Positions 1,376 to 24,100 of a DNA stretch of 64,000 nucleotides are shown here, piece by piece. Below the pieces are notes generated by a model. It searched no databases. It had not been told where the DNA came from and was given only the letters and a program-made list of their open reading frames with translations. Both the position numbers and the translations under genes were made by a program. The first letter of the stretch is position 1, and every line of letters begins with the position of its first letter. Source of the DNA: an uncultured Verrucomicrobia subdivision 3 bacterium (lineage in GTDB: Bacteria > Verrucomicrobiota > Verrucomicrobiia > Limisphaerales > DASXHY01); contig CALBZA010000017.1 in assembly GCA_937890005.1 (NCBI GenBank), positions 7,571 through 71,570 on the forward strand, in the 5' to 3' direction.

Positions 1376-1389
1376 AAAGGAAGTCCATC

Positions 1390-1917: not shown

Positions 1918-1936
1918 ACTTCTGCCGTTCCGATCC

Positions 1937-6850: not shown

Positions 6851-7354
6851 ATGCAGAAGATTGAACCACCCGATGCGCATCATCTGTCCGCCGCAATTGG
6901 CTGGCTTGAACTCGGAAACATGTCCGAGGCGGAGGCCGAACTGAACCGCGTTTCGGCGACGCTTCAATGTCATCCCGACGTTCTTGAAGTGCGCTGGGTG
7001 CTTGCGGCGGAGGCGGAGAATTGGGACGCAGGGCTGCAGGTCGCACGCACGCTCGTCAAGATGGCTCCGGGCCGTTCGTCCGGCTGGCTGCACCAGGCTT
7101 ACGCGATCCGGCGCGCCACGGGCGGAGGCGTTCGGGCGGCTCAGGAGGCGTTGCTTCCAGCATTTGGAAAATTTCCGAAGGAGCCGACGATTCCCTACAA
7201 CCTGTCGTGTTACGCCTGCCAGTTGAACAATCTCGATGAAGCGCGCGTCTGGCTTCAACGCGCATTCGAGGCGGGAGACAAGGATACGATCAAAACAATG
7301 GCGTTGGCGGATTTGGATCTGAAACCGCTTTGGGAAGAGATCCGCACGCTGTGA
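6851..7354 (+). CDS. TPR-like helical repeat protein
   Basis: 167-aa ORF with repeated A-x-x-x-L/A-x-x-A helical hairpin patterns (WLELGNMSEAEAELNRV, NLSCYACQLNNLDEARVWLQRAFE). Confidence 0.55.
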   Translation: MQKIEPPDAHHLSAAIGWLELGNMSEAEAELNRVSATLQCHPDVLEVRWVLAAEAENWDAGLQVARTLVKMAPGRSSGWLHQAYAIRRATGGGVRAAQEALLPAFGKFPKEPTIPYNLSCYACQLNNLDEARVWLQRAFEAGDKDTIKTMALADLDLKPLWEEIRTL

Positions 7355-7392
7355 TCGAAGTGGGGATTTTCAGGGAACGTCAGATTTCCATC

Positions 7393-7544
7393 TCTCATTA
7401 ACACCGTGCTTCAGCACGGTGATATGGGGCTGAATTGAAGAAGCTGTTTCAACAGCTTTGCTTTCGAAACACAGAAACCTGTTAAAACAGCTGAGCGCCG
7501 CAATGGCCGCCGTTTCACCGCGCTGAAGCGCGGTGCTATGAGAA
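7393..7544. repeat. MITE/REP-like element, copy A (about 28-bp terminal inverted repeats, each itself a hairpin)
   Basis: The 5' end is tctcattaacaccgtgcttcagcacggtg. The 3' end is caccgcgctgaagcgcggtgctatgaga, which is its reverse complement. Related copies lie at 29638..29753 and 63632..63795. Confidence 0.7.
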
Positions 7545-7597
7545 CTGAAATCATCGGAATCAATGCGTTTTCCACCAGCTCGATTTGCTCGCCCACC

Positions 7598-7626
7598 TTG
7601 ACCTGGCTCCTGTGCGTCCTTACGTT
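7598..7626 (+). promoter_or_regulatory. Candidate sigma70-type promoter TTGACC-17-TACGTT; the -10 ends 7 nt before the ATG (leaderless mRNA predicted)
   Basis: ttgacc (7598-7603), a 17-nt spacer, tacgtt (7621-7626), then ccgttac and ATG 7634. Confidence 0.35.
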
Positions 7627-7633
7627 CCGTTAC

Positions 7634-7903
7634 ATGGCGAAATCAAACAGCAAGAAGCCTGCGAAGAAGAAAGCGATTCTGTTGGGCGTTGGACTCGATT
7701 CTGATGGCCACAAGCGCGTGACGACCGGTCCGAACTTTGCGCTGGTCGGTGGTTCAGAGGAGACCCATGAGGTCATGACGGAGAAAGTCATCAAGATCAA
7801 CGAGAAGCTTTCCGCCAAGGGAAAACAGCTGGAAGACGTGAGCCGCGAAGAGTTCGATGACATCGCGCATTCGGTGGGATTGCATCGGCCCAATCGAAAC
7901 TGA
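7634..7903 (+). CDS. Small hypothetical protein (89 aa, Lys-rich N-terminus)
   Basis: Starts MAKSNSKKPAKKKAILLGVGLDSDGHKRVTTG. The composition looks coding and the candidate promoter sits directly upstream. No family recognised. Confidence 0.5.
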   Translation: MAKSNSKKPAKKKAILLGVGLDSDGHKRVTTGPNFALVGGSEETHEVMTEKVIKINEKLSAKGKQLEDVSREEFDDIAHSVGLHRPNRN

Positions 7904-7994
7904 CGCCAACCTGCTTTCCAAACGGAAGTTGTGACGGTCTGACGATCTGGTTGTGTCCGATCTTGCTCTTTAATCCACAAAAATTGCCCATTTC

Positions 7995-8023
7995 TTGACG
8001 GGGCAGGGGTCCGTTGGTACGGT
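7995..8023 (+). promoter_or_regulatory. Candidate sigma70-type promoter of the nuo operon, TTGACG-17-TACGGT
   Basis: tttcttgacg...tacggt lies 29 nt upstream of the nuoA ATG. The same TTTCTTGAC context occurs at 25273. Confidence 0.35.
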
Positions 8024-8052
8024 GCGGCGAACTTTAGAACTGAACAGTTCGT

Positions 8053-8430
8053 ATGTCGTTCACTAATAGCCCTTACCTGCCAATTCTGGTGCTGATGATC
8101 GCAGCTCTGGGGTTTGCGCTAACGCCGCTGGCGCTTGCATGGTTGTGGGCAAGGAAGTTTTCTCCCAAAAAGGCTGGTCCCGACAAGAACGCCACTTATG
8201 AATGCGGGTTGGAATCGAAGGGCGACGCCTGGGTGCAGTTCAAGGCCGAGTATTACCTCTACGCGATCATTTTCCTGATCTTCGATGTGGAGACGATTTT
8301 CCTGCTGCCGTTCGCGGTGGCGTTTACCAGCCTGTCGGCGGGAGCATTCATCACGATGATGGTGTTCCTGTTCCTGCTGGTGGTTGGTCTTGTCTGGGCA
8401 TGGAAGAAAGGAGTGCTCAGCTGGAAATAG
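8053..8430 (+). CDS. nuoA: NADH-quinone oxidoreductase subunit A
   Basis: 125 aa with three TM segments. Contains YECG...FDVE...FLLPFA, the NuoA/ND3 signature. Confidence 0.9.
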
Positions 8431-8507
8431 ACCGGCCGACGGATAGTCCGGCGTTCAGTGATGCTGCGAAGGTTTGCGCCAAACAAGGCGCTGCTGTTTT
8501 TGATAAC

Positions 8508-9119
8508 ATGGACGAAACACTGAGAAGTGAATTGCAGAAGCAGGGGATCGTGGTGACGACCCTTGAAGAGCTGTACAACTGGGGCCGGAAGAATTCCATC
8601 TGGCCTCTGGGGTTCGGGCTCGCCTGCTGTGCGATTGAAATGATCGCGGCGTCGATGTCGCGCTGGGATCTCGCCCGGTTCGGTGCCGAGGTTTTTCGTC
8701 CGTCGCCACGTCAGGCCGATCTGATGATCGTTGCCGGGACCGTGACCAAGAAAATGGCGCCGCAGGTCGTGCGGCTTTACAACCAGATGTCGGAGCCGAA
8801 ATACGTCATCGCGATGGGCGCCTGCGCGATTTCCGGCGGACCGTTCAAGCAGGGATACAACGTGCTGAAAGGCATCGACCGGTTCATTCCGGTGGATGTG
8901 CATATTCCCGGTTGTCCGCCCCGCCCTGAGGCGTTGCTGCATGCGTTCATGACGCTTCAGCAAAGGATTGACGATCAGAAACTCACGGGGGAAAGCCGTC
9001 CGCGTCATTTGAAAGCCGATGCTCCCAGCGAATTTCCGGTGCCGGAATACGGTGAGCACGACCTTGTGCCGTCGAAAAACTCTGAAGTATGGCAGCCGCC
9101 TCAGGTGGCCAGAACGTAA
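8508..9119 (+). CDS. nuoB: NADH-quinone oxidoreductase subunit B
   Basis: [14 protein letters not shown]...[10 protein letters not shown]...IPGCPPRPE are the N2 cluster ligand motifs. Start chosen at MDETLRS; the alternative ATG at 8400 overlaps nuoA. Confidence 0.9.
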
Positions 9120-9159
9120 CGCTTTGAACCCGGCCTGACCGGGTTCGTTCATTTTAACT

Positions 9160-9792
9160 GTGGAAAGTCTCGAACAGATCATAACGCGAATTGAAGCCGC
9201 CGTCCCGGGCGTGCGTTTGGAAATCGTTCCGAACGACAGCCCGTCGGGCCAGCGCTCGCTTCTCGTGGACCGCGAGCACGCTTTTGCCGCGGCGAAGTTT
9301 CTGCGCGACGAACCGTCGCTCCAATTCGACTATCTTTCGAACGCGACAGGCATCGACTGGCTGGACGCCGAGCTGACCGAGAAGATCAAGGTGAAGAAGG
9401 TGGTCGATGGCGTGGAGAAGGAAGTGGAAGAGGTGAAAAAGACGCCGCGGCCGGGTTATCTGGAAGTGGTGTATCACCTATATTCCATGAGCCTGAAACA
9501 CGGTCCGGTCATTCTTCGCGTCCGCACGCCCAATCGCACGGATGTCACATTGCCGTCGCTCACGCCGCTCTGGCGCGGAGCGGAGTTTCAGGAGCGGGAG
9601 ATATTCGATCTTTACGGAATTCAGTTTGAAGGGCACCCGGACCTGCGCCGCATTCTGATGTGGGACGAATTCAAGGATCATCCAATGCGGAAGGATTATG
9701 TTGAGCCGGATGATTTCGAATACGAACCGACGCCGCACGATGAAGTGTTGGAACGGGTCAAGGAACACCAGGCGAAAGAGGTGAAGGCATGA
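9160..9792 (+). CDS. nuoC: NADH-quinone oxidoreductase subunit C
   Basis: Contains [29 protein letters not shown], the 30-kDa subunit signature. GTG start. Confidence 0.9.
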
Positions 9793-10973
9793 GCGCGTCC
9801 GGTGTGGAAATCCCGTCCGATTCGACCAGGAACTACACCCTGCTGCCCGGCCGGAAGAACGGCAGCGCCGTCGATGGCGAATTGCTGGAAATTTCAATGG
9901 GCCCGCAGCATCCGTCCACGCACGGCGTGTTCCGAATGGATGTGGTGCTCGACGGCGAACGCGTGGTGAAGCTCAAGCCGGTGTTCGGCTACCTGCATCG
10001 CAACCACGAAAAGATCGCCGAGGGCACGAGTTACCTGTCTTCGATCCCATATACCGACCGGCTCGATTATTTCTGTTCGATGACGAACAACTGGGCTTAC
10101 TGCCTTTCGGTGGAAAAGCTCGCCGGACTGCAGGTTCCTGAACGCGCGGAATACCTGCGCGTCATTCTCGCCGAACTGACCCGCCTTCAGAATCACGCGT
10201 CGCTCTGCGGCTTCCTGCTCCAGGACATGGGTGCCATGGGCACGCCGCTCATGTATGCGTTCCGCGAGCGCGAAAAGGTGCTCGATCTGTTCGAATCGAT
10301 CAGCGGCGCGCGCATGATGTGCAACTTCATGCGCTTTGGCGGACTGCGCACCGATGCACCGGATGGCTGGCTCGCGCGCGTGCAGAAGCTCGTGGATGAG
10401 TTTCCATCGTTCCTCGACGAATTCGACACGCTGCTCAGCGAGAATGAAATCATCATGGCGCGCACCCAGGGTGTCGGCGTCCTGCCGCGCGAACTGGCAA
10501 TCAACGCCAGCATCACGGGCCCGATGCTCCGTGCCTGCGGCGTGAACTACGATGTGCGGAAAGTCGATAAATACGGGATTTATGACCGGTTCGATTTCCG
10601 CGTGCCGCTCGGCGAGAACGGCGATGTTTACGATCGTTACATGATGCGCGTTCTCGAAATGCGCGAATCGATCAAGATCCTGAAGCAGGCGTTGAAGGAT
10701 ATTCCTGAAGGACCGGTGATCGATCCCAAGGCGAAGCTGCGCGGGTTCCGTCCCAAGCCGGGCGAATCCTACGGCCGGATCGAAGCGCCAAAAGGCGAAC
10801 TCGGTTTTTATCTGATCAGCGACGGTTCGCCGAATCCCTATCGCTACCGCGTGCGACCGCCGAGCTTCATCAACCTGACGGTTCTTGAAGACATGTGCCT
10901 CGGTCACAATGTCGGCGACATCATCATCATCCTCGGTAGCGTGGATATCGTGTTGGGGGAAGTGGACCGATGA
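9789..10973 (+). CDS. nuoD: NADH-quinone oxidoreductase subunit D
   Basis: [13 protein letters not shown]...[11 protein letters not shown]...[10 protein letters not shown] are 49-kDa subunit signatures. ATGA overlap with nuoC. Confidence 0.95.
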
Positions 10974-10979
10974 AGAAAC

Positions 10980-11076
10980 GTTTCAAGTTTGGTGTTTCAT
11001 GTTTCGCGTTTCGTGTTTCGAGACGCCATTGCTCAGGACAATCGGCACGAACTCCGAACTTCAAACCCGGAACTTT
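10980..11076 (+). repeat. 7-nt-periodic intergenic element (six GTTTCNN heptads, then GAACTNN heptads) ending 5 nt before the nuoI ATG
   Basis: gtttcaa gtttggt gtttcat gtttcgc gtttcgt gtttcga ... gaactcc gaacttc aaacccg gaacttt. The 19-mer at 11001-11019 is identical to the reverse complement of 49136-49154. Confidence 0.8.
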
Positions 11077-11081
11077 TTAGC

Positions 11082-11717
11082 ATGTTAGGCGAAGCAATCC
11101 TCAAAGGCATGGCGGTGACCGCCAAGAACTTCTTCGGAAGCTATGTTTCCGAGGAACGATTGCCGACCATTCAATATCCGGAAGAGCGGCAGAAGCTCCC
11201 GGAGGCGACCCGGCAGTTTCCATTTCTGGTTTACGACGGCGAAGATCCGATGAAGGGATTGCGCTGTGTGGCGTGCCAGATCTGCGAGAAGGAATGTCCG
11301 CCGAAGTGCATTTACATCGTCAAGAGCAAGGACAAGCGCGTCGATTACAAGGGCCAGCCGCAGTTTTATCCGGCCACGTTCGACATCGACATCTCGGTCT
11401 GCATGAGTTGTGGGATCTGCGCGGAGGTCTGTCCGTTTGAATCGATCAAAATGGACACCGAGTTTGAACTCGCGAATACGAACCGGTTCGGTGGATTGCT
11501 GGTGAACAAGCATCAGCTCGCCAAATCGAATGAGCATTATCGGAAAATTCATCCCAAGGACGCCGCGGAGTCCGACGCGGTGATCGCGGCAGAAAAGGCG
11601 AAGGCCGAAGCCAAGGCCAAGGCCGATGCCGAGGCAAAGGCAAAAGCTGCTGCAGCTGCCAAAGCCGCTGCCGCTGCTGCTCCGGCCAAAACTGCTCCGG
11701 CGGATGCCGCGAAATGA
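11082..11717 (+). CDS. nuoI: NADH-quinone oxidoreductase subunit I (2x[4Fe-4S]) with an Ala/Lys-rich C-terminal tail
   Basis: Two ferredoxin motifs, CVACQICEKECP and CMSCGICAEVCP. The tail reads EKAKAEAKAKADAEAKAKAAAAAKAAAAAAPAK. Confidence 0.9.
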   Translation: MLGEAILKGMAVTAKNFFGSYVSEERLPTIQYPEERQKLPEATRQFPFLVYDGEDPMKGLRCVACQICEKECPPKCIYIVKSKDKRVDYKGQPQFYPATFDIDISVCMSCGICAEVCPFESIKMDTEFELANTNRFGGLLVNKHQLAKSNEHYRKIHPKDAAESDAVIAAEKAKAEAKAKADAEAKAKAAAAAKAAAAAAPAKTAPADAAK

Positions 11718-12114
11718 GGCCGGGCATTCCAGTTTGTTTTCCGACGCACCGCGCCGAACGGACGGAAATTTGTCTCCGCCGACGTGTGTCTCAACCATGC
11801 GGTGCCCGAGCTATCGGACCACGACTCTGTGAGTTGCAGCGGCATGAATTGGTGGGCAAAGATTCAAAGAATTTCTGTCTCAGGAAGGCGAACATCGCTG
11901 CGGGTCACAGACCCGCGCTTCTCCGTTCGGCACCTCGCTCAGCAGTTTCGCGCCGCAGATGCTTCGCGCCACTTTTCTTCTGGAAATCAAAAGACGTTGC
12001 CGGTTATTTTCCGCCGTCCGCAGCGCCCTGGCTGTGTGCGGCCAATCCAATGCCGCATGGACGTGTTTCCCATCCACCTTCAAGGGCCGCGCATTTTATT
12101 GATGGGATTTGAGC

Positions 12115-13296
12115 ATGGCTGATTCGATAGATCAGATATTTGTGAACCTGAAGCACTGGCTGGTCGGCTTCGCGCCGGAGCCGTGGCAGGGCCTCGCTTC
12201 GATCGTCATCTCCATCGCCGCGCTCATGGGTGTCTTTGCAACTCTGTTCGCGGTCACCACGATTCTCGAGCGCAAGGGACTTGGTCGCATCCAGAATCGT
12301 TACGGACCCAATCGAGTCGGGCCCTTCGGTTTTCTTCAGCCGGCAGCGGATGGCATCAAGGCGTTGATCAAGGAAGACCTGGTTCCGCGCTCCGCGGACA
12401 AGGTGGTTCACTTTCTTGCGCCGCTGGTGCTGGTCATTCCTCCTTTTTTGGTGCTCTCGGTTCTTCCCATCGGCCGCAACATGACGCTTGTTGATTTCGA
12501 TGCCGGCATCCTGTTCTTCTTCTCGGTTGGCGCGATCATGGAGCTGTCGGTCTTCATGGCCGGATGGTCGAGCCGGAACAAATATTCGTTGCTCGGAGCC
12601 ATGCGCGCGATCGCGCAGATGATCAGCTACGAAATCCCGCTGATTCTCTCCAGTGTCACGGTGATCATGATCGTCGGATCACTTTCGCTGAACGAGATCG
12701 TCGCGGCACAAGGCGGTTTCAACGGCGCATTTCCGGACTGGTTCGTCTTCACGCCGTGGGGCTTTGCCGGATTTGTTCTGTTCATGATTGCGGCGACGGC
12801 GGAATCGAATCGTTCGCCATTCGATCTTCCGGAAGGCGAATCGGAAATCATCGCCGGCTATTACATCGAGTATTCCGGATTCAAGTTCGCGCTGTTCTTC
12901 CTCGGCGAATACATCGGGCTTTTTGCGGTCAGCGGGCTCGGCATCACGCTCTTTCTCGGTGGCTGGGGTGCGCCGCTCTCGTTCCTTCAATTCATCCCAT
13001 CGTGGGCGTGGTTCTTTGCGAAGCTTCTGGCATTGATCGCGGTCTTCATCTGGATTCGCGGCACGCTTCCGCGTCTGCGGCAGGATCAGCTGATGAATTT
13101 CGCGTGGAAGTTCATGCTCCCAATGACGCTTCTCAACATTGTTGCCGCGGCTGTCTGGCATTTCATGCTGCCGCTGCCGGCTGCGGCACGCTGGATCGCC
13201 TGCTCGGCGATCATCATCGGCTCCTACATTCTGCTCGGCCGGGGACTGATGGAACGCCGCAAGATTGGCCGCCGCACGTATCGATTTGCTGAATGA
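12115..13296 (+). CDS. nuoH: NADH-quinone oxidoreductase subunit H
   Basis: ERKGLGRIQNRYGPNRVGPFGFLQPAADGIK...ESNRSPFDLPEGESE is the ND1/NuoH signature. Confidence 0.95.
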   Translation: MADSIDQIFVNLKHWLVGFAPEPWQGLASIVISIAALMGVFATLFAVTTILERKGLGRIQNRYGPNRVGPFGFLQPAADGIKALIKEDLVPRSADKVVHFLAPLVLVIPPFLVLSVLPIGRNMTLVDFDAGILFFFSVGAIMELSVFMAGWSSRNKYSLLGAMRAIAQMISYEIPLILSSVTVIMIVGSLSLNEIVAAQGGFNGAFPDWFVFTPWGFAGFVLFMIAATAESNRSPFDLPEGESEIIAGYYIEYSGFKFALFFLGEYIGLFAVSGLGITLFLGGWGAPLSFLQFIPSWAWFFAKLLALIAVFIWIRGTLPRLRQDQLMNFAWKFMLPMTLLNIVAAAVWHFMLPLPAAARWIACSAIIIGSYILLGRGLMERRKIGRRTYRFAE

Positions 13297-13305
13297 ACCG
13301 ATAAC

Positions 13306-13812
13306 ATGACGATCAGTTTCGCCATCATCGCCGTTGTGATCATTGCCGCTTCCGTGGCGGCCATAACGCTGCGCCATTTGATTCACTGTTCGCTCGCGCT
13401 GGTGGTGGCATTCGCCGGACTGGCGGCTGCGTATCTTCAGCTCAACGCGCAGTTTGTCGGTTTTGCACAGCTGCTCGTTTATGTCGGAGCCGTGTCGATT
13501 CTCGTGGTATTTGCCATTCTGCTCACCCGCAGTGGCGAAAATCCGAATGAGGAGATTTTTTCGAAAACGTGGATGGCCGGCGCGGCGGTCGTGGTTGCTG
13601 TGTTGGGCGTTCTCGTATGGGCGATCACGAACAGCGAGGTTGTGAAACGCGAGCCTTCGCCCGCCACTGAAGTGACCGTCCGCGGCATCGGCGATGTTTT
13701 GATGAACCGATTCGTCCTCCCGCTCGAAGTGATCGGCCTCCTGCTGACCGCCGCTCTGATCGGCGCGGTGATCATTGCGATGAGCGACAGGCAAGAAAGG
13801 AAGATGAAGTGA
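13306..13812 (+). CDS. nuoJ: NADH-quinone oxidoreductase subunit J
   Basis: 168 aa, polytopic. FVGFAQLLVYVGAVSILVVFAILL is typical of ND6/NuoJ, and the position in the operon fits. Confidence 0.85.
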   Translation: MTISFAIIAVVIIAASVAAITLRHLIHCSLALVVAFAGLAAAYLQLNAQFVGFAQLLVYVGAVSILVVFAILLTRSGENPNEEIFSKTWMAGAAVVVAVLGVLVWAITNSEVVKREPSPATEVTVRGIGDVLMNRFVLPLEVIGLLLTAALIGAVIIAMSDRQERKMK

Positions 13813-13829
13813 ACGCCTTGAATCAAGCA

Positions 13830-13909
13830 GGGGTGAAAAGGGGAAAAGGAGCAGGGGAGAAAATACCTGCGTTTTTCTCCTTTTCTCCTTTTCTCCCTTT
13901 CTCCTTTTC
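13830..13909 (+). repeat. Homopurine / homopyrimidine imperfect inverted repeat (long hairpin or H-DNA-prone tract) between nuoJ and nuoK
   Basis: The purine arm is ggggtgaaaaggggaaaaggagcaggggagaaaa. The loop is tacctgcg. The pyrimidine arm is tttttctccttttctccttttctccctttctcctttt. Confidence 0.75.
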
Positions 13910-13930
13910 AAAAGGGAAAGGATCGAGCGT

Positions 13931-14245
13931 ATGAGCAACCCGCTTGTCGGCTACCTCCTCCTCTCCGCCTTCCTCTTCGCCATCGGCATGGCCGGTGCCC
14001 TGACGCGGCGGAACGCGATCCTGGTCCTGGTCGGCATCGAGCTGATGCTGAATGCGGCGAACCTGAACTTCATCGCGTTCTGGCGGTTTGGACCGAATCC
14101 GGAGGCGCTGACCGGTGTCATGTTCGTGATCTTTTCGATCGGACTTGCCGCTGCGGAAGCGGCGGTTGGACTGGCGCTGATCATCGCGATTTACCGGCAT
14201 TACAAGACCACGAGCGTGGACGAGATGGATCAATTGAAGGGATGA
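13931..14245 (+). CDS. nuoK: NADH-quinone oxidoreductase subunit K
   Basis: 104 aa with three TM segments. Contains LVLVGIELMLNAANLNFIAF and AAAEAAVGLALIIA, the ND4L signature. Confidence 0.9.
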   Translation: MSNPLVGYLLLSAFLFAIGMAGALTRRNAILVLVGIELMLNAANLNFIAFWRFGPNPEALTGVMFVIFSIGLAAAEAAVGLALIIAIYRHYKTTSVDEMDQLKG

Positions 14246-14306
14246 AGCCGGTTTCTGAAATGTTTTGTCTGCCTCCGCGGCGCAGCGTTGCCGCGGTGTT
14301 AACTGC

Positions 14307-16421
14307 ATGAGTTGGATTGTTAAAAATCTTTGGCTGATTCCCGCGCTGCCGGTTCTGGCGGCGGGATTGAGCGCGCTCGCACCGCAGCGTTGCCGGAAGT
14401 TTTCGGCCGGGCTGGCGATTGGCTCAATGATCGGCGCCTTTCTGCTGTCTCTGTGCGCGTTTGCAAACGTGCTGGGACACCACGGTCACGGCGAGGAAGC
14501 ACGGCAGGTTTTCAACGTCACCTGGTTTCAGTTCGCCGAGGGAAGCGCGGGTGCTCTTCAGCTGGGATGGATCGTCGATCCGCTCACAACGGTGATGCTG
14601 GTGATGGTCACGTTCGTTGGAACGTTGATCTTCATCTACAGCGTCGGCTACATGGCGCACGACCAGAACTTCACGCGATTCTTCACGTTCCTTGCGCTGT
14701 TCGCCGGGGGAATGCTGGGAGTCGTCATCGCCAACAGCCTGCTGCTGCTGTTCATCTCGTGGGAAATTGTCGGGCTGACCTCCTATCTGCTCATTGGTTT
14801 CTGGTATCACAAACCGACCGCCGCCGCCGCGGCAAAGAAGGCGTTCATCACCACACGCATTGGCGACGTCGCTTTCCTGCTCGGAATGGTCTGGCTGTAT
14901 TCGCAAACCGGAACGCTGTTGTTCTACACCGAAGAGGGCACCGGCTGCATGCAGCAGGCGGCGCTGACAAAGCTGGTGGCGCAGACGACCGGAGTTGGAA
15001 TGGCTGTTTCCACTGCGATTGGGCTGCTGATCTTTTTTGGCGCTGTCGGTAAATCCGGTCAGGTGCCGTTGCATGTCTGGCTGCCGGACGCGATGGAAGG
15101 TCCCACGCCTGTCAGCGCACTGATTCATGCTGCGACCATGGTGGCCGCGGGCGTGTTTTTGGTGGCGCGGGTGTATCCGCTGATGAGTGTCGTTCCGGAA
15201 GGATCGACGGCCACACCGGTGGCGCTTCAGGTGGTCACGTGGATTGGTGCCATCACCGCCATCTTTGCCGCCTCAATCGCTGTGGCTCAGAACGACATCA
15301 AACGCATTCTCGCATACTCCACCGTTTCGCAGCTTGGTTACATGATGATGGGTCTCGGCGTTGGCGGGGTGGCGGTTGCGATGTTCCATCTCATCACACA
15401 CGCGTTCTTCAAGGCGCTGCTGTTCATGGGCGCGGGCTCGGTGATTCATGGCTGTCACGAAGAACAGGACATCCGGCGCATGGGCGGCGTGAAGAAATAC
15501 ATGCCCATTACATTCATCACTTACGCCATCGGCATGCTGGCGCTCGCCGGATTCCCGGTGTTGTTCTCCGGATTCTGGAGCAAGGACGAAATCCTGCACG
15601 CGGCGCACGGATGGCCGGTGTCGCACGTTCCATTCTATCTTGGAATTGCCGGCGCGCTGCTGACGGCGTTTTACATGACACGGCAGGTCGTGCTGGTTTT
15701 CTTTGGCAGTTATCGCGGCGGACACGATCACAATCATTCTCGTTCCGTATCCAAATCTCATGGCAAGAAAGCGGAGTCTTCACACTCCGCTTCCGAACCG
15801 CATGAAAGTCCTCTCGTGATGACAGCGCCGCTCATGATTCTTGCGGCGTTTGCCATTTTATTGGGCTTCATCGGAACGCCCACATGGCCGTGGTTCCAGA
15901 CGTTTCTCGGTACGCATCATGAGGGCGGCGGGTTCACGAAGGATGTCGTTTCACTGATGATTATTTCTTCCGCAATCGTCTTCGCCGGTCTTGGCCTTGG
16001 CTGGTGGTTCTATGGCCGCAAGCCGATTGCGAAGGCGGATCAGCCTGATGTTCTCGAAACGCTGCGTCCCGACATCTACAAGGTTCTCGAAAACAAGTAT
16101 TGGATCGACGAGCTGTACGAGAAGTCGGTGATCGCCTTCAATGCCTGGTTCGCGAAGGTGTGCGACTTCCTCGACACCTGGATCTGGAGCGGACTGGTGC
16201 ATCTGGTTTCTTACGTCGTGATCGGTTTTTCCTGGGTGAATCGCGTGATCGACGAATACGTGGTGAACCTCGGCTTTGACCAGGGCTGCAAACGGATCTC
16301 GCTGGGCGGCGGATTTTTCTCCCGGCTGCAGGATGGGCGGATTCAGGGTTACCTGCGGGCGATCGGAATCGCGCTCGTGCTGCTGGTCATCTGGCTGATC
16401 TGGGGAGGAAGCGGTTCATGA
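14307..16421 (+). CDS. nuoL: NADH-quinone oxidoreductase subunit L (704 aa, longer than typical)
   Basis: Contains FISWEIVGLTSYLLIGFWYHKPTAAAAAKKAFITTRIGD, the ND5/NuoL signature, and a C-terminal amphipathic region. Start taken at MSWIVKNLW. Confidence 0.9.
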   Translation: MSWIVKNLWLIPALPVLAAGLSALAPQRCRKFSAGLAIGSMIGAFLLSLCAFANVLGHHGHGEEARQVFNVTWFQFAEGSAGALQLGWIVDPLTTVMLVMVTFVGTLIFIYSVGYMAHDQNFTRFFTFLALFAGGMLGVVIANSLLLLFISWEIVGLTSYLLIGFWYHKPTAAAAAKKAFITTRIGDVAFLLGMVWLYSQTGTLLFYTEEGTGCMQQAALTKLVAQTTGVGMAVSTAIGLLIFFGAVGKSGQVPLHVWLPDAMEGPTPVSALIHAATMVAAGVFLVARVYPLMSVVPEGSTATPVALQVVTWIGAITAIFAASIAVAQNDIKRILAYSTVSQLGYMMMGLGVGGVAVAMFHLITHAFFKALLFMGAGSVIHGCHEEQDIRRMGGVKKYMPITFITYAIGMLALAGFPVLFSGFWSKDEILHAAHGWPVSHVPFYLGIAGALLTAFYMTRQVVLVFFGSYRGGHDHNHSRSVSKSHGKKAESSHSASEPHESPLVMTAPLMILAAFAILLGFIGTPTWPWFQTFLGTHHEGGGFTKDVVSLMIISSAIVFAGLGLGWWFYGRKPIAKADQPDVLETLRPDIYKVLENKYWIDELYEKSVIAFNAWFAKVCDFLDTWIWSGLVHLVSYVVIGFSWVNRVIDEYVVNLGFDQGCKRISLGGGFFSRLQDGRIQGYLRAIGIALVLLVIWLIWGGSGS

Positions 16422-17977
16422 ACGGTCTGCCACTCATCACATTGCTTACCCTGCTGCCGATCGTTGCCGGCTTGCTGGTCATTGGAATCGGAAGCGAAAA
16501 CCGGAAGGTCGGACGCAATCTGGCTTTTGGAACGGGCCTTCTGACATTTGTCATCACACTATGGCTGTGGAAATCGTTCGACGCTTCCTCCGGCGCATTG
16601 CAGTTCGAGGAAAAGCATCTCTGGATTCCGACGCTCGGCATTGAATACCGCGTCGCGGCGGACGGCCTCAGCCTGCTGATGCTGGTGCTGACGGCGATGG
16701 TCACGCTGCTGTCGATGCTTGCTTCCTGGCGGATGGATGACCGGTCGCATCTGTATTATGGACTGGTGCTGTTTCTTCAGGGCGGACTCTTTGGAACTTT
16801 CACCGCACTGAATTTCTTCCACTGGTTCCTGTTCTGGGAACTGAGTCTGATCCCGGCGTTTTTCCTTGTTCGATTGTGGGGCGGACCTCAACGCGCCGCG
16901 GCATCGACGCAGTTCTTTGTTTACACGATGGTCGGCAGCATCGGGATGTTGCTCGCGTTTCTCGCAATCTTTTTGGCGACGGGACATGTCTCTGATTTCA
17001 CGGCATTGGCTGAACTGGCGCGCAAAGGTGAAATTGCCTCGGCCATTTCATCCGATCTCACCTGGACCGGGCTGAGCGGAAAAGCACTGGTCGGAATCAT
17101 CTTCCTGGGCGCGCTGCTTGGATTTGCAGTCAAGGTGCCGTTGATGCCGTTCCACACGTGGCTGCCTGCGACCTACACCGAAGCGCCGTCGGCGACGACG
17201 ATGCTGCTGACCGGTGTGATGTCGAAGATGGGCGTTTATGGTTTCCTGCGAATTCTGCTGCCGATCTTCCCGGCGGAAATTCAACAATACCGGACTCCGC
17301 TGCTTGTGCTGGCGGTGATCACGATTGTGTTCTCCGCGTGCGCTGCCTTCGCGCAACGCGACCTGAAGCGCATCCTCGCTTATTCTTCAATCAACCATCT
17401 CGGCTATTGCCTGCTGGCGATGTTCGCAGTCGCGACGGGTTCGACAACATCTCCGGCGCCGGACGTGGAACGCGCGGCTGCATTGAACGGCGTGTTGCTC
17501 CAGATGTTCAATCACGGCCTGACGGCGGCGACGTTGTTCTGGTTCGTGAGCCTGATCGAACAGCGCAGCGGCGGTTTGCGTGGACTGAATGATTTTGGCG
17601 GCTTGCGGAAAGTGGCGCCGGTCTTCTGCGGACTGATGGGGATTGCTCTGTTCTCGTCGCTCGGACTGCCCGGCCTGAATGGATTCATCGGCGAATTCCT
17701 GATCTTCAAGGGTGTATTCCCGCTGGCGATGTGTTCCGCTTCGGTCTCGGTGATTGGCCTGCTTGTCACGGCGATTTTCATCCTGACGATTTTGCAGCGG
17801 GTCTTCAACGGACCGTTGAATGAGAAATGGACCGGTTTTCCGGACCTGACGACGTCCGAGCGCGTGCTGCTGGCGATACCGATTGCCTTGATGTTTGTGC
17901 TGGGCGTTTACCCGCAGCTGGTGCTCGGAACGATCAACGCCACTGTGGTGCAGCTGGTGAAGCAACTGCCGTTTTGA
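16418..17977 (+). CDS. nuoM: NADH-quinone oxidoreductase subunit M (copy 1)
   Basis: LGIEYRVAADGLSLLMLVLT...FLFWELSLIPAFFLVRLWGG...HTWLP are ND4/NuoM signatures. ATGA overlap with nuoL. Confidence 0.9.
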   Translation: MNGLPLITLLTLLPIVAGLLVIGIGSENRKVGRNLAFGTGLLTFVITLWLWKSFDASSGALQFEEKHLWIPTLGIEYRVAADGLSLLMLVLTAMVTLLSMLASWRMDDRSHLYYGLVLFLQGGLFGTFTALNFFHWFLFWELSLIPAFFLVRLWGGPQRAAASTQFFVYTMVGSIGMLLAFLAIFLATGHVSDFTALAELARKGEIASAISSDLTWTGLSGKALVGIIFLGALLGFAVKVPLMPFHTWLPATYTEAPSATTMLLTGVMSKMGVYGFLRILLPIFPAEIQQYRTPLLVLAVITIVFSACAAFAQRDLKRILAYSSINHLGYCLLAMFAVATGSTTSPAPDVERAAALNGVLLQMFNHGLTAATLFWFVSLIEQRSGGLRGLNDFGGLRKVAPVFCGLMGIALFSSLGLPGLNGFIGEFLIFKGVFPLAMCSASVSVIGLLVTAIFILTILQRVFNGPLNEKWTGFPDLTTSERVLLAIPIALMFVLGVYPQLVLGTINATVVQLVKQLPF

Positions 17978-18052
17978 TGCGCCGATGAACACGAGACGAA
18001 ACAATTTGTGGGATGCGACCAGAACACGGTTTGCGCAATCCGCAATCTGAAG

Positions 18053-19588
18053 ATGCTGGCCTGGACGATTTACATTTCATTTCTCGGTGTGCTGGTGCTG
18101 ATGCTCCTGCCGAAGGACAATCCGCGCGCGGCGCGCGGCGTGGCATTCGCAACGGCTTTTGCGGGGCTGGTGATTGCCTTGGTCGCTTACGCCGGGTTCA
18201 AGGCCGGTGAACTGCTGACCATCGCCGACAAAGCATGGATTCCGACGCTTGGATTCCGATACCAGCTGGCTGCGGACGGCGTGAGCCTGACGCTGGTTCT
18301 GCTGACGGGACTGGCAGCGGTCGCGGGAATTCTTTTCTCCTGGAACATCGAGCATCGCGCGAAGGAATTTTTCGCCTTCTATCTCGCGCTGATCGGCGGT
18401 GTGTATGGCGTGTTCCTGAGCTTCGATCTGTTCCTGCTTTTTGTGTTCTACGAAATCGCGATCATTCCCAAGTATTTCATCATCGCGATCTGGGGTTCGA
18501 CGCGCCGCGAGTACGGCGCCATGAAACTCGCGCTCTATTCGTTCATCGGCAGCGCCATGGTGCTGGTGGGAATGATTGCGGCGTATGTGGTTTCCGGCGC
18601 GGAGACCATGAGCCTTGTGGAACTGGCGAAGTTTTCGTTCCCGCACAGTTTTCAAATGTGGGCGTTCCCGCTGGTGTTCGTCGGTTTTGCCATCCTGGCC
18701 GGCATGTGGCCGTTCCACACCTGGGCGCCGACCGGTCACGTGGCTGCGCCGACCGCTGCTTCGATGCTGCTGGCCGGCGTGGTGATGAAGCTCGGCGCGT
18801 ATGGCTGTTTGCGTGTGGCGATGACGCTTTTCCCGCAGGGACTGGAACCGTGGGGCTGCACGGTGCTCGGATTCGGATCGTGGCGCGATGTGTTCGCGGT
18901 GCTGGCGGTGATCGGAATCGTTTACGGCGCAATGGTCGCGCTGGTGCAGAAGGATTTCAAATTCGTCATCGGTTATTCGAGCGTCAGCCACATGGGATTC
19001 GTTCTGCTTGGACTCGTGACGTTGAACACGATCGGTGTCAGCGGTGCGGTGTTGCAGATGTTTTCGCACGGCGTGATCGCGGGCCTGCTGTTCGCTGTGG
19101 TCGGAAGGATGGTTTACGAACGAACCCACACACGCGAGCTGCCGATGCTGGAAGCGATGCGGCTTTCGAAGATGCTGCCGTTCGCGGCGGTGACGTTTGT
19201 GATTGCCGGCGTGGCATCGATGGGCATGCCGGGCTTCAGCGGATTCATCGCGGAATTGCAGGTGTTGATCGGCGCGTGGAAGTCGTATCCCGCACTCGCG
19301 ATCATCACCGGTGTAGGCATTCTGATTGGCGTTGCCTACACCTTGCGTGCGACACAGAAAGCCTTCTTTGGTGACGACACCACTGCCGCGGCCACGGCTG
19401 ATGCCGATGAAAACAGCCACGGCCATGAACCGCTTCAGCCGATCTCCGTGCCCGAACGTTTGGGAGCGACGCTTTTGATCGGCGCATCCGTTCTGGTCGG
19501 CCTTTATCCGCACGTGCTGTTGAAAATCATCGTTCCGAGTTTTGAATCGCCGTTGTTCCAATGGATTCAGAAAGGAGGTGCTCAATGA
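18053..19588 (+). CDS. nuoM: NADH-quinone oxidoreductase subunit M (copy 2, divergent paralog)
   Basis: LGFRYQLAADGVSLTLVLLT...FVFYEIAIIPKYFIIAIWGS...HTWAP is the same NuoM signature set as the preceding gene. Confidence 0.85.
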   Translation: MLAWTIYISFLGVLVLMLLPKDNPRAARGVAFATAFAGLVIALVAYAGFKAGELLTIADKAWIPTLGFRYQLAADGVSLTLVLLTGLAAVAGILFSWNIEHRAKEFFAFYLALIGGVYGVFLSFDLFLLFVFYEIAIIPKYFIIAIWGSTRREYGAMKLALYSFIGSAMVLVGMIAAYVVSGAETMSLVELAKFSFPHSFQMWAFPLVFVGFAILAGMWPFHTWAPTGHVAAPTAASMLLAGVVMKLGAYGCLRVAMTLFPQGLEPWGCTVLGFGSWRDVFAVLAVIGIVYGAMVALVQKDFKFVIGYSSVSHMGFVLLGLVTLNTIGVSGAVLQMFSHGVIAGLLFAVVGRMVYERTHTRELPMLEAMRLSKMLPFAAVTFVIAGVASMGMPGFSGFIAELQVLIGAWKSYPALAIITGVGILIGVAYTLRATQKAFFGDDTTAAATADADENSHGHEPLQPISVPERLGATLLIGASVLVGLYPHVLLKIIVPSFESPLFQWIQKGGAQ

Positions 19589-21063
19589 GCTACCTCGAAC
19601 TTCTGAAACTGGCGCTGCCTGAAACGATTCTTGTCGCGACGGCATTTTTCATCCTGGTCGCGGACCGTTCCACGGGCGGACTCGACCGGCGGCTTCGATT
19701 CCGCATTGGCGGATTGATTGCGAGTGTTGGTTGTGCCTTGGCGGCCGGCTGGATCGCTGTGACGCCGGCGCACGCCAATGTGATGAATGGCTTGCTGGTG
19801 ATTGATCCGCTCACGCGCCTGGTGAAAGCGGGCATTCTCATTTTGACCATCCTCACGGTGCTGCTTTCATCCGACTCGGATTTCACGGAGCACGTGGGCG
19901 AATACATGGCGCTGATTTTGTTCGCCGCGGTGGGAATGATGTTTCTGGTGAGCGCGGAGGACATCCTGATGATCTTCGTTTCGCTGGAACTGACGAGCCT
20001 GTCGCTTTACATCCTGACCGCGTTCAACAAACGGAACATCAAGTCGGCCGAGGCGGCGTTGAAATATTTCCTGTTTGGTGGAATGGCCGCGGCATTCACG
20101 TTGTTTGGCCTGAGCCTCGTGTATGGCCTTTCTGGATCGACCAACCTTCACCAGATCGCTGCTGCGCTGGCGGGGAAGGGACTTGATCCGTTGCTGGTCG
20201 TTGCGGTTGTGATGACCATTGTCGGATTCGGCTTCAAAGTGGCGGCGGTTCCGTTTCATCTCTGGGCGCCGGATGCCTATGAAGGCGCGCCGGCACCGAG
20301 CGCGGCGTTTATTGCGTCAGGGTCGAAGGTCGCGAGCTTCTTTATTTTTGCGAAGCTGTTGATGATCGGTTTCGCCGGAGTGGAAGGAAGCGGGGCGTGG
20401 CGCAGCTTCGTTTCTGGCTGGATTCCCACCGTGGCGGTCATTGCTGGTGCATCCATGATTCTCGGCAATCTTGCGGCCATCGTGCAGGGAAGCGTGCGAA
20501 GGCTGCTGGCGTATTCGGCGATTGCACATGCCGGTTATGCACTGCTGGGAATTGCGGCGAACAACGAAGACGGCGTGGCATCGCTGCTTTATTACGTTTT
20601 GACCTACGGCCTCACAACGGTGGGCGCGTTTGGTGTGATTGCAGTGGTGGAAAACAGAACTGGCGGTGACACGATGAGCCACTTCGCCGGACTGAGCCGG
20701 CGGGCGCCGTTGATTTCGTTTTGCATGTTCGTGTTTCTGCTTTCGCTGGCAGGCATTCCGCCGCTGGCAGGTTTCTTCGGAAAATTCTATCTCTTTGCCG
20801 CGGCGGTGAAGGGTGGAGAAAACCTGGGCCTGCTCTGGCTGGTGATCCTGGCCATCGCAACGAGTGCAGTGTCGCTTTACTACTACCTCAAGGTGCTGAA
20901 GCAGATTTACGTGGCGGCACCTGAAACGAATGAACCGGTGCAGGTGCCGATTCTTCAGCAGATCGTTCTTGGCTTGATCGCGGCTGCTGTGGTGATCCTC
21001 GGTTGCGTGCCGGCCGTGGTAGTCGATGCGTTGAAGACGGCGATCCAGGCGGCAGGCCACTGA
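19585..21063 (+). CDS. nuoN: NADH-quinone oxidoreductase subunit N
   Basis: Contains FVSLELTSLSLYILTAF...KYFLFGGMAAAFTLFG...FHLWAPDAYEGAP, the ND2/NuoN signature. 4-nt overlap with nuoM2. Confidence 0.9.
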   Translation: MSYLELLKLALPETILVATAFFILVADRSTGGLDRRLRFRIGGLIASVGCALAAGWIAVTPAHANVMNGLLVIDPLTRLVKAGILILTILTVLLSSDSDFTEHVGEYMALILFAAVGMMFLVSAEDILMIFVSLELTSLSLYILTAFNKRNIKSAEAALKYFLFGGMAAAFTLFGLSLVYGLSGSTNLHQIAAALAGKGLDPLLVVAVVMTIVGFGFKVAAVPFHLWAPDAYEGAPAPSAAFIASGSKVASFFIFAKLLMIGFAGVEGSGAWRSFVSGWIPTVAVIAGASMILGNLAAIVQGSVRRLLAYSAIAHAGYALLGIAANNEDGVASLLYYVLTYGLTTVGAFGVIAVVENRTGGDTMSHFAGLSRRAPLISFCMFVFLLSLAGIPPLAGFFGKFYLFAAAVKGGENLGLLWLVILAIATSAVSLYYYLKVLKQIYVAAPETNEPVQVPILQQIVLGLIAAAVVILGCVPAVVVDALKTAIQAAGH

Positions 21064-21147
21064 GCCGGCAACCGGGATTCTTCTCGTCGAGACAGATTTC
21101 CCCTCGCGTGTGCGGGAGAACTTTGCTTTGCTTCGCGCGGGACGCAA

Positions 21148-24100
21148 ATGACCTCATCCAGAAATCTTCTCGCCTGGCCGGCCATACTTCTGAGCCTGTT
21201 TGGAATCAGCTCCTCCAACGCGCAATCGACCAACGACGCCAAAATCTGGGTTCGAACGGCGGGAAATCCGCGCCCGGAAGAGCGCTGGGTTGAGCCGGAT
21301 CGTGGTGAATATTTCACCCTGGATCAGGTTGCATTCAGAGCCGTCGCGCAAAAGGCGTCGCGCGGTGAGCCATCGTCGGCGCGCGCCAGTGGAATGGAAG
21401 TCGAACTGCCGATGCCGGATGGAACGACCGCGCGATTCGCGATTGTGGAAGCGCCGATCATGGAGCCCGAGCTCGCGGCGAAGTTTCCGCAGATTACAAC
21501 CTACGCCGGACAGGGAATTAATGATCCCGACGCGACCGTGCGGCTGGATCTGACGCCATTGGGATTTCATGCGCAGGTGCTGTCGCCGCGCGGTGCGATC
21601 TACGTTGATCCTGCGTTTCGCGGTGACACCAACACCCACGTGGCCTATTGGAAGCGCGATTTGCGGAGGAACACGACATTTCGATGTTCTCCTCCGATTC
21701 CCATTGGTTCGGCCATTCGCCCGGATCTGTCTCTCCAGGTGCGACGACCGCTTTCAGGAGGCAGTCTCAGAACGTTCCGGCTGGCGGTATCCACGACTGG
21801 CGAATATACGGCTTTCTTCGGCGGGACTGTGGAAGCGGCGATGTCGGCAGTCGTCACCGCCGTCAATCGCGTGACGGGCATTTACGAACAGGAACTGGCC
21901 GTGCGGCTCGTGCTCGTGGCGAACAATGACCTTCTGATTTTCACCGACGGGAACAGCGATCCATTCACGAACGAGAATGAGAGCTGGATGCTCGACGAGA
22001 ATCAGGGCGTCGTCGATTCGATCATCGGCAGTGCCAACTATGACATTGGACATGTCTTCGGCACTGGCGGTGGAGGAATTGCAACGCTAGGGAGTGTTTG
22101 TCATCCCTCCTACAAGGCCCGAGGCGCAACCGGTGCTTTCTCCCCTGTTGGCGATGCCTTTTACATCGATTACGTCGCGCACGAAATGGGACATCAGTTC
22201 GGAGCGAATCATACGTTCAACAGCACCTCGGGCGCATGCGGTAGCGGGAACCGGCATGGACCAACGGCGTATGAACCGGGAAGCGGATCGACGATCATGG
22301 CCTATGCGGGAATCTGTACGGGAAACGATCTCCAGTTTCACAGCGACCCTTATTTTCACGCCGGCAGTCTGGACGAAATCCACACATTCCTGAACACGGA
22401 TGCCGGTTGCGCAATGGGATCCGCAACCGGCAATTCTCCGCCCGTGCCAAACGCCGGGGCAAACTATGTGATCCCGGCAAACACACCGTTTGTGCTTACC
22501 GCCAGCGCCACTGACCCGGATGGAGATGCGCTGACTTATTGCTGGGAGCAAATGGATCTCGGTCCCTCGGCATCGCTTTCAGCCGGCGATTCAGGGAGCG
22601 GCCCGCTGTTCCGCTCATTTCTGCCGACCACAAGTCCGGTTCGATACTTCCCGAAACTCAGCAGCGTTCTGGCGAATACCAACTGGAATCAGGAAAAACT
22701 GCCCACCACGAGCCGGACGATGAACTTCCGCGTTACTGTCCGGGATAATCGACCGGGCGGTGGTGGTGTGGCTGATGACGACATGACGGTCACAGTTGTT
22801 GGAACCGCCGGGCCGTTCCGGGTGACTTCGCCCAACACGGCTGTGGCCTGGGCAGGAAACCAGACCGTGACATGGAATGTTGCGGGAACGACTGCCGCCC
22901 CGATCAATGCCTCGAGCGTGAACATCTTTCTCTCTGTAGATGGTGGCCAGACTTTTTCGTATCAGCTGGCGACGAATGTGCCGAACACCGGTTCCCGACT
23001 CGTCACGCTTCCGAACGTGAGCACGTCACAGGCGCGGGTGAAGGTTCAGGCGGCAGGAAACATTTTTTACGACATTTCCGACGCCAACTTCACCATCGTT
23101 CCCAGCGGCCCGTTCGTTTCTGTTTCAAATGCCGTGGTGACCTCGGAATCGTGTTTTCCAACGAACGGCTGGATCGATCCGTTTGAAACGGTCACGGTGA
23201 ATTTCACATTTCAGAACACCGGGACAGCTCCCACGACCAATCTGGTTGTGACGCTTCTGCAAACGAATGGAATCTATTATCCAGGCGCTCCGCAGAACAT
23301 CGGGGTGATTCCGGTCGGAAGCACAGCGACGCGGTCATTTCAGTTCACTCCATCGGGAAGCTGCGGCGGTTCGCTCACAGCTCTGTTTCAGCTGTCCGAC
23401 AACGGCACGTCCCTTGGAACGGCAGCCTGGCCATTCACCCTGGGGAGCGTGCAATCGACGATCGTGACGCAGGTGTTCAACAATCCGGGTTTCATCGTAA
23501 TTCAGGATGCCGATGTTGCCTGGCCGTATCCGTCATCAATCAATGTGGGTGGCGTTTCAGGCGAGGTGGTGAAAGTGACCGTGACATTGAACGGGCTCAG
23601 CCACACTTATCCCGATGACATCGGGATGCTGCTGGTCGCCCCGAACGGGCGGGCGGTGAAGTTGATGGATGCATGTGGCGGTGATGGTGATCTGTCGTTC
23701 ATCAATCTGACCTTTGATGACGCCGCCCCGGCCTCTCTACCCGATTCGACGCAGATATTCGGCGGAACGTATCGCCCGACCGATAATTTTCCAAATGACG
23801 GATTGGAGGGAACGCCGCCGCCTCCGTATCAAACCACTTTGCTTTCGCTGGGGACAGTTCCGAACGGAACATGGTCTCTTTATATTCAGGATTTCAACGT
23901 GGCCGATTTTGGTGACATCAGCGGCGGCTGGACGTTGCGGATCGTTTCGTCGAACGCCGTCGTCAGCTGTTGTTCGACTTTCCCGCAGCCATCGTTCACG
24001 AGCATGACGAGGGAAGGCGAACTGGTTCGTTTCAGCTGGAGCGCGATTCCCGGTCCGAACTATCAGGTTCAATATCGAACCAACCTGACTGTCGGTTCAT

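Follow-up and report, generated by a model that had tools for sequence, protein, structure and literature searches.

An intact operon for a 2M-type complex I without nuoEFG in an uncultured soil-type member of the Verrucomicrobiota

What kind of complex I is encoded by an operon that has no NADH-oxidising module yet carries two nuoM genes, and from where would such an enzyme take its electrons? The question is raised by positions 8053-21063 of the window, by which we mean the whole 64,000-nucleotide stretch analysed here (bases 7571-71570 of contig C17, 219 kb long, in a 4.6 Mb genome that is 98% complete, from an uncultured Verrucomicrobia subdivision 3 bacterium). A preliminary description of this DNA, made from its letters alone, had read the locus as a nuo cluster without nuoE, nuoF and nuoG but with two NuoM paralogues and a long NuoL, and had likened it to the '2M' variants of complex I. 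We find that it is an intact operon of the already described 2M complex I in a soil-type member of the Verrucomicrobiota, and hence a known variant. Its product is, with good though not full confidence, a 12-subunit 2M-type complex I that has no N-module (NuoEFG) of its own and most likely works with a ferredoxin- or flavodoxin-type partner.

The 2M type was reportedly defined by Chadwick, Hemp, Fischer and Orphan in 2018 (ISME J 12:2668), and we know of no structure or biochemistry for a 2M complex I. The features given for it in the literature are a second NuoM, a NuoL with an insertion of about 26 amino acids (aa) in its lateral helix HL, and clusters that lack nuoE and nuoF (PMC6606698, PMC9040806; further 2M sources are PMC12342949, PMC7117926 and PMC11636273). 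Examples are Nitrospira CI_1 (PMC6606698, PMC12342949) and Acidobacterium capsulatum, for which an 'unusual complex I with duplicated nuoM' has been described and whose 2M operon is transcribed (PMC11636273).

The cluster and its long NuoL

Pfam and NCBIfam profile matches assign twelve contiguous, intact genes on the plus strand in the order nuoA-B-C-D-I-H-J-K-L-M-M-N, the order that had been proposed. We refer to the first nuoM product, next to NuoL, as Ma and to the second, next to NuoN, as Mb. The genes and the parts of them discussed below are as follows.

8053-8430, plus strand: nuoA, 125 aa (PF00507, 114 bits)
8508-9119, plus strand: nuoB, 203 aa (PF01058; NF011394, 357 bits, cut-off 312)
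9160-9792, plus strand: nuoC, 210 aa, separate from nuoD (PF00329, 131 bits)
9789-10973, plus strand: nuoD, 394 aa (PF00346, 323 bits; TIGR01962 and NF004739 above cut-off)
11082-11717, plus strand: nuoI, 211 aa, with two 4Fe-4S motifs, CxxCxxCxxxCP (Fer4 families)
11580-11714, plus strand: Ala/Lys/Glu-rich C-terminal tail of NuoI, AEKAKAEAKAKADAEAKAKAAA..., followed by an Ala/Pro-rich end (orthologue comparison)
12115-13296, plus strand: nuoH, 393 aa (PF00146, 375 bits)
13306-13812, plus strand: nuoJ, 168 aa (PF00499, 115 bits)
13931-14245, plus strand: nuoK, 104 aa (PF00420, 94 bits)
14307-16421, plus strand: nuoL, 704 aa (PF00662, PF00361; NF005141, 636 bits, cut-off 556)
16050-16328, plus strand: amphipathic helix region HL, NuoL residues ~582-674, between transmembrane helices (TM) 15 and 16 (AlphaFold2 secondary structure)
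16200-16268, plus strand: 2M-specific insertion in HL, NuoL residues 632-654, HLVSYVVIGFSWVNRVIDEYVVN (profile alignment, anchor distance)
16418-17977, plus strand: first nuoM, Ma, adjoining nuoL, 519 aa (TIGR01972, 468 bits)
18053-19588, plus strand: second nuoM, Mb, adjoining nuoN, 511 aa (TIGR01972, 431 bits)
19585-21063, plus strand: nuoN, 492 aa (TIGR01770, 401 bits)

Several junctions are overlapping or short: nuoC/nuoD and nuoL/Ma overlap by 4 nt, and Mb and nuoN share an ATGA. We place the nuoN start at 19585 on account of this overlap with the Mb stop (junction sequence AAAGGAGGTGCTCAATGA) and of a Shine-Dalgarno site, AAAGGAGG; the start at 19561 given in the preliminary description is also possible. 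The start of nuoB is put at M103 of an open reading frame (ORF) spanning 8202-9119, from the spacing of orthologues. The two NuoI models, TIGR01971 and NF004536, scored 79-83 bits, under their cut-offs. No NuoEFG is encoded in the cluster or its flanks, as had been noted; the cluster differs in this from a canonical 14-subunit Nuo locus.

The length given for NuoL, 704 aa, was confirmed, and the protein exceeds the canonical NuoL of the same genome (625 aa) by 79 residues. E153, K249 and K426 stand at canonical positions. Using the DELY motif and the Q-x-G-x-x-Q-x-Y motif just before TM16 as anchors of HL, we counted 75 residues from anchor to anchor in the window NuoL and in 106 of 109 close homologues, against 49-50 in 118 of 119 canonical verrucomicrobial NuoL sequences and 46 in that of E. 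coli, for which the amphipathic-helix residues were taken from published work (PMC3274701). The HL of the window NuoL is 25 residues longer than that of the genome's own canonical NuoL. A profile alignment of 48 long and 40 canonical verrucomicrobial NuoL resolved the difference to one block of 23 residues (632-654), which is missing from at least 80% of the 40 canonical sequences. A gain of 23-25 residues agrees with the insertion of about 26 residues described for 2M complexes.

An AlphaFold2 model of NuoL computed from this 88-sequence alignment (predicted local distance difference test score, pLDDT, 81; predicted template modelling score, pTM, 0.83) has helices at 582-595, 597-651 (55 residues) and 662-674, followed by TM16 at 679-703, and places the insertion within the long helix 597-651. 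An earlier model from 28 close homologues was discarded (pLDDT 53). Foldseek aligned the model with NdhF as its top match and gave target-normalised TM-scores of 0.82-0.85 to the best NdhF, mycobacterial, E. coli and T. thermophilus NuoL chains; mitochondrial ND5 was also among the top 50. The root-mean-square deviation was ~14 Å over whole chains and ~4 Å for some shorter alignments or focus-refined membrane-tip entries. These values would fit, as weak evidence from a single-chain model, a displaced C-terminal anchor of NuoL. The other extra residues of NuoL fall in loops at 210-219, 297-305, a His-rich stretch at 474-497 before TM15, and 572-577. The HL insertion is therefore real but covers about one third of the extra length (23-25 of 79 residues), so that the idea of NuoL being lengthened in HL holds for the 632-654 block and fails for the remainder.

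Two divergent NuoM paralogues

Both Ma and Mb scored above the TIGR01972 cut-off of 264 bits and lie between nuoL and nuoN, whose products have their own NCBIfam models and are distinct from either. The two are 30% identical to each other and 32-34% identical to E. coli NuoM, in keeping with the divergent paralogues that had been described. FastTree phylogenies (LG+gamma, 174 and 190 sequences) gathered the first-M genes in one clade (support 0.978) and the second-M genes in another (0.998), as expected of old paralogues that are each monophyletic. Neither is a pseudogene: both are full-length, each is conserved among its orthologues (67-78 in number) in two phyla, and in both the Glu on TM5, the Lys on TM8 and the Glu on TM12 are kept. 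Canonical NuoM of Verrucomicrobiae forms the sister group of the second-M clade (support 0.998); for other phyla, the trees held canonical NuoM only as representatives picked for similarity to Ma.

Alignment to the key residues of E. coli NuoM (E144, K234, K265 and E407) set the two copies apart. Ma has all four charged residues (E141, K239, K270 and E426), and its TM7 lysine is kept in 78 of 78 orthologues. Mb has E134, L215, K246 and E401: a leucine, Leu215 (18695-18697), occupies the site of the TM7 lysine, as it does in all 67 Mb orthologues. Mb also carries a clade-specific lysine on TM5, Lys140 (18470-18472), within an E-x4-P-K motif whose 'PK' lysine was found in 17 of 17 sequences. The same split extends to more distant clusters. 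The Ma clade holds 26 representatives, and the four that were looked up (P0122, P0125, P0133 and P0146) each come first of the two M genes in a J-K-L-M-M-N cluster whose NuoL measures 655-676 aa; on one of these contigs the gene ahead of the first M is present only as its 3' end. In all four, the first M has the lysine, and the second has leucine at TM7 together with the TM5 lysine (Y-E-x-A-x-x-P-K).

Leucine at TM7 is not confined to 2M clusters. All 16 canonical verrucomicrobial NuoM sampled have it at the site of E. coli Lys234; they lack the TM5 lysine and show conserved His and Lys-Lys residues on TM8. Examples of this Leu-type canonical NuoM are found in the source genome itself (contig C58, 8249-10162) and at loci L114-L133. 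The canonical NuoM of eight Acidobacteriaceae genomes is of the ordinary Lys type. A literature search on loss of the NuoM TM7 lysine returned nothing relevant and did not reach the defining 2M paper, so we make no claim of newness.

One way to read the leucine is that Mb does not pump and acts as a structural or charge-relay spacer, in which case the complex would move at most four protons per electron pair and the 2M arrangement would adjust coupling or stability. Current pumping models make use of the ion pair between the TM5 Glu and TM7 Lys of NuoM (PMC9271201), and the lysine is replaced throughout the Mb orthologues and in the four distant clusters. Against this, Mb keeps its TM5 Glu, TM8 Lys and TM12 Glu, its invariant TM5 lysine looks like a relocated partner, it is highly conserved (71-75% identity between phyla), and the canonical verrucomicrobial NuoM, the only M of a presumably working pump, is of the Leu type too. 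We regard a non-pumping Mb as unlikely, although it survives better than the other alternatives considered below. The second M is intact and conserved; the extra pumping module mentioned in the preliminary description is putative, and one of the two M subunits lacks the canonical TM7 lysine.

These patterns raise the possibility, which we offer tentatively and at less than even odds, that the two M subunits of 2M complexes are not equivalent: the L-proximal one would be a standard Glu/Lys/Lys/Glu subunit, and the N-proximal one would belong to a Leu-type lineage, in which the supposedly essential TM7 lysine has given way to leucine and the 2M copies have a TM5 lysine instead. In the Verrucomicrobiae sampled, which probably use menaquinone, canonical complex I has this Leu-type M and no other. 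If this were true, a whole lineage of complex I would run with a rewired or silenced central pump, and the 2M architecture might have come from the addition of a standard M to a Leu-type enzyme in the verrucomicrobial lineage, later moved to Acidobacteriaceae. If confirmed, the change from Lys to Leu, seen both in the N-proximal M and in the NuoM of the canonical verrucomicrobial enzyme, would put current 'electrostatic wave' models, which need the TM5 Glu/TM7 Lys pair, to a natural test. It would also be relevant to the question of whether a 2M complex does move five protons.

Electron partner and the canonical operon

The part of the enzyme that would pass electrons to quinone looks complete. 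NuoB has the N2 cluster motifs (CCxxE, C and CPP) and a C-terminal extension of ~45 aa, NuoI has its two 4Fe-4S motifs, and NuoD has a His and a Tyr (DRLDY) at putative quinone-site positions, the counterparts of H38 and Y87 in T. thermophilus Nqo4. In the membrane arm, both membrane glutamates of NuoK (GIELM, AAEAA) and the TM5 Glu, TM7 Lys and TM12 Lys of NuoN are present. The quinone is probably menaquinone, made by the futalosine route, since the genome has two matches above cut-off to VitK2_biosynth (MqnA/MqnD-type; 246 and 162 bits, at C74:11069-11857 and C33:19329-20030) and none above cut-off to MenD or UbiG. PFOR/OFOR-type genes that could make reduced ferredoxin are also encoded.

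Energetics argue for such a donor. The potentials are ~-320 mV for NADH, ~-74 mV for menaquinone and ~-420 to -500 mV for ferredoxin; electron transfer from NADH to menaquinone spans ~0.25 V and yields ~0.5 eV per electron pair, that from ferredoxin 0.7-0.85 eV. As ~0.5 eV falls short of the cost of moving five protons against a normal proton-motive force, a low-potential partner is most likely. The 2M type and the ferredoxin hypothesis are both published (PMC6606698, PMC9040806, PMC12342949): 2M complexes without an N-module have been hypothesised to couple quinone and ferredoxin in either direction (PMC6606698, PMC9040806), and entry of electrons from ferredoxin at cluster N6a is known for NDH-1, which also lacks that module (PMC7021789).

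For subunit order, proton number, partner identity and direction of operation, we infer the following arrangement. NuoB, C, D and I would form the Q-module, joined to the membrane subunits H, A, J and K and to four antiporter-like subunits, probably in the order L-Ma-Mb-N. At 1.5 Å per residue, the 23-25 residues gained by HL correspond to ~35-37 Å, roughly the width of one antiporter-like subunit, so the ~25-residue-longer helix could clamp four of these instead of three. As in the cyanobacterial NDH-1, electrons would pass between the NuoI clusters and a carrier of the ferredoxin or flavodoxin type. In the forward direction, ferredoxin would reduce menaquinone and extra protons would be pumped; in reverse, the proton gradient would drive the reduction of ferredoxin by menaquinol.

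Several observations weigh against parts of this arrangement. Mb lacks the TM7 lysine of the Glu/Lys pair (PMC9271201), and a fifth proton is therefore not assured. The best Protein Data Bank (PDB) match of NuoI is E. coli NuoI (60 bits), ahead of cyanobacterial NdhI (34 bits), so that homology gives no pointer to a ferredoxin site and the notion of an NdhI-like ferredoxin acceptor is unsupported. A simple analogy with NDH-1 is further weakened by the absence from the cluster of genes resembling NdhS, NdhV or NdhO, the ferredoxin-docking subunits. Finally, the NuoEFG proteins of a canonical operon elsewhere in the genome could in principle dock on the 2M complex.

The sole candidate for a docking feature in the cluster is the conserved Lys/Ala-rich tail of NuoI. 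Nearly all of the 46 NuoI orthologues from Verrucomicrobiota and Acidobacteriaceae have an AEKAKAEAKAK-type motif in this position, in some cases with substitutions; beyond it, the Ala/Pro-rich end varies. One may speculate that the tail is a docking arm for a low-potential partner. A literature search on Lys-rich FpoI/NuoI tails gave nothing relevant and likewise stopped short of the defining 2M paper, and newness is not claimed here either.

A search of the genome for nuoEFG or a second nuo operon, as the preliminary description had suggested, located a canonical operon on contigs C13 and C58. PF01512 (NuoF) matches one gene only, which runs off the end of C13 and continues on C58, from its start; the two ends share the peptide AYICGEETGLIESLEGKR, an overlap of 18 codons inside nuoF, and the contigs therefore adjoin, with the operon split by an assembly break. 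C13 carries B-C-D-E and the first part of F; C58 carries the rest of F, a PD-(D/E)XK gene (PF13366) and G-H-I-J-K-L-M-N. No second nuoE, nuoF or nuoG was detected in the genome by tblastn with the canonical NuoE, NuoF and NuoG, so the sole set lies in this separate operon and away from the window cluster. Of the seven genes in the genome that match PF00361, the window cluster holds four and the canonical operon the other three. Identity between subunits of the window cluster and those of the canonical operon is 27-55% (NuoD 44%, NuoI 37%, NuoB 55%). The canonical nuoG (C58, ~1363-3047) lies in two frames, with a switch near C58:1850-1865; the N-terminal part has Fer2_4 and NADH-G_4Fe-4S_3 domains and the remainder is in the other frame, which reflects either a mistake in the assembly or a genuine frameshift.

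The membrane and Q modules of the 2M complex might then borrow the canonical NuoEFG and form an NADH:menaquinone oxidoreductase isoenzyme with an altered membrane arm, for particular conditions. A single nuoEFG set in the genome would suit such sharing, as would a NuoI that is more like the NuoG-binding bacterial NuoI than NdhI; in Acidobacterium capsulatum both complexes are co-expressed, and the study in question refers to the 2M form as an NADH dehydrogenase (PMC11636273). Yet the step from NADH to menaquinone cannot drive more protons than in the canonical enzyme, the Q-module subunits have diverged strongly from their canonical counterparts, and the extra C-terminal tails of NuoI and NuoB would sit on the NuoG-binding surface. 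Moreover, the cluster moved between phyla without nuoEFG, and the nuoG of this assembly is in two frames. On balance we consider borrowing improbable, slightly more so than a non-pumping Mb, and prefer a ferredoxin- or flavodoxin-type partner.

Distribution, surroundings and comparison with known systems

A scan of species genomes found relatives of Ma encoded at at least 592 loci. The best 80 belong to Verrucomicrobiota (labelled subdivision 3, Limisphaerales or Pedosphaera) and Acidobacteriaceae. The exact order A-B-C-D-I-H-J-K-L-M-M-N was present at 31 loci in these two groups and at a few more with split matches, and shorter contigs held fragments consistent with the 12-gene order. In even samples, a close Ma occurred in 16 of 301 genomes of the phylum and an Mb orthologue in ~27 of 61 genomes of the class Verrucomicrobiae. 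The closest cross-phylum relatives of the cluster are those of Acidobacteriaceae, at 62-75% identity. Acidobacterial Mb sequences nest inside verrucomicrobial Mb in the tree and are 71-75% identical to the window Mb, against 47-71% for most verrucomicrobial orthologues of the same class, which suggests that Acidobacteriaceae acquired the cluster from Verrucomicrobiota. The 2M type is thus common in Verrucomicrobiae and appears to have crossed into Acidobacteriaceae as well.

The nuoI-nuoH spacer (11718-12114) comprises 397 non-coding nt with pieces of dispersed repeats, which blastn also placed on eight other contigs; it has no Rfam match. Orthologous loci mostly have fewer than 100 nt between the stop codon of nuoI and the point where the nuoH match begins. 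That we are dealing with a silent or decaying copy of complex I, as this unusually long, repeat-bearing spacer and the lack of a sigma-70-like promoter in a simple scan might suggest, is highly improbable given twelve intact genes with overlapping or tight junctions and conserved catalytic residues, an order kept in dozens of genomes of two phyla, and similar repeat insertions in the canonical operon of the source genome. The scan itself, with no promoters and terminators at the background rate, is uninformative.

We do not accept an ORF within the spacer (11714-12112, 132 aa) as a gene: it lacks both a Pfam match and conservation, its composition is Arg-rich and resembles noise, and it overlies the repeat fragments. 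The nuoJ-nuoK spacer (13813-13930) is a long hairpin and a dispersed repeat, with copies on contigs C83, C15, C80 and C3; 'miRNA' hairpin matches there, in an Rfam scan of 7000-22000, were all sub-threshold and were set aside. A palindromic element of ~150 nt at ~7392-7544 occurs on more than 25 contigs, and one of its copies separates nuoH from nuoI in the canonical operon.

According to Pfam, the upstream flank encodes a hybrid histidine kinase, a TPR protein and, directly 5' of nuoA and 3' of the palindromic element, an 89-aa ORF (7634-7903, plus strand) with a basic head (MAKSNSKKPAKKK...). This ORF has more than 6800 database relatives (79-94% identity among the best 120) and no Pfam or NCBIfam match. 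It was found in 27 of the 61 Verrucomicrobiae genomes, with or without a 2M cluster and, where the cluster exists, on other contigs; we therefore rejected it as an accessory subunit of the complex. Directly 3' of nuoN, 21148-24207 (plus strand) encodes a secreted-type metalloprotease of 1019 aa, of the M12B (reprolysin-like) kind, which also matches PKD-like and P domains.

Among known systems, the window cluster agrees best with the published 2M complexes, as the preliminary description had supposed. By the published descriptions it shares with them a second nuoM between nuoL and nuoN, an HL insertion of ~25-26 residues in NuoL, separate NuoC and NuoD, the lack of nuoE and nuoF, and a canonical complex I in the same genome. 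Its close relatives include members of Acidobacteriaceae, the family of Acidobacterium capsulatum. The Nitrospira (clade 3) clusters reportedly differ in keeping an enlarged nuoG homologue (PMC6606698), whereas the window cluster has no nuoG and places nuoI ahead of nuoH; its host is a heterotrophic-looking member of the Verrucomicrobiota, and Nitrospira is a chemolithoautotroph with a reductive tricarboxylic acid cycle.

The cyanobacterial and chloroplast NDH-1L resembles the window complex in its 11 core subunits, has no NuoEFG, which the window cluster does not encode either, and receives electrons from ferredoxin directly at cluster N6a of NdhI (PMC7021789). Its NdhF1 is the best PDB sequence match of the window NuoL (442 bits, 6hum_F), in line with the top Foldseek match. 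It differs in having one NdhD (M) per complex and in needing NdhS, NdhV and NdhO for ferredoxin binding, none of which the cluster encodes, and the window NuoI is not NdhI-like. The rhizobial 'green' complex I and Complex_I_3 of 'Ca. Manganitrophus' (PMC9040806) likewise have more than three antiporter-like subunits and a spanning HL-type insertion, but replace NuoL with two MrpD-like subunits, whereas the window cluster keeps a true NuoL with Proton_antipo_N and an HL/TM16 tail.

With the canonical 14-subunit complex I, as in E. coli NuoA-N and the C13/C58 operon, the window complex shares the core Q- and P-module subunits and key residues; it differs by the lack of an N-module of its own, the extra M, the longer HL, the order D-I-H and the tailed NuoI. 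The 2M complex I is one of few natural experiments on the number of pump modules that can be driven, and among its representatives the window cluster provides a clean, complete example without nuoG from a heterotroph lineage of the menaquinone type.

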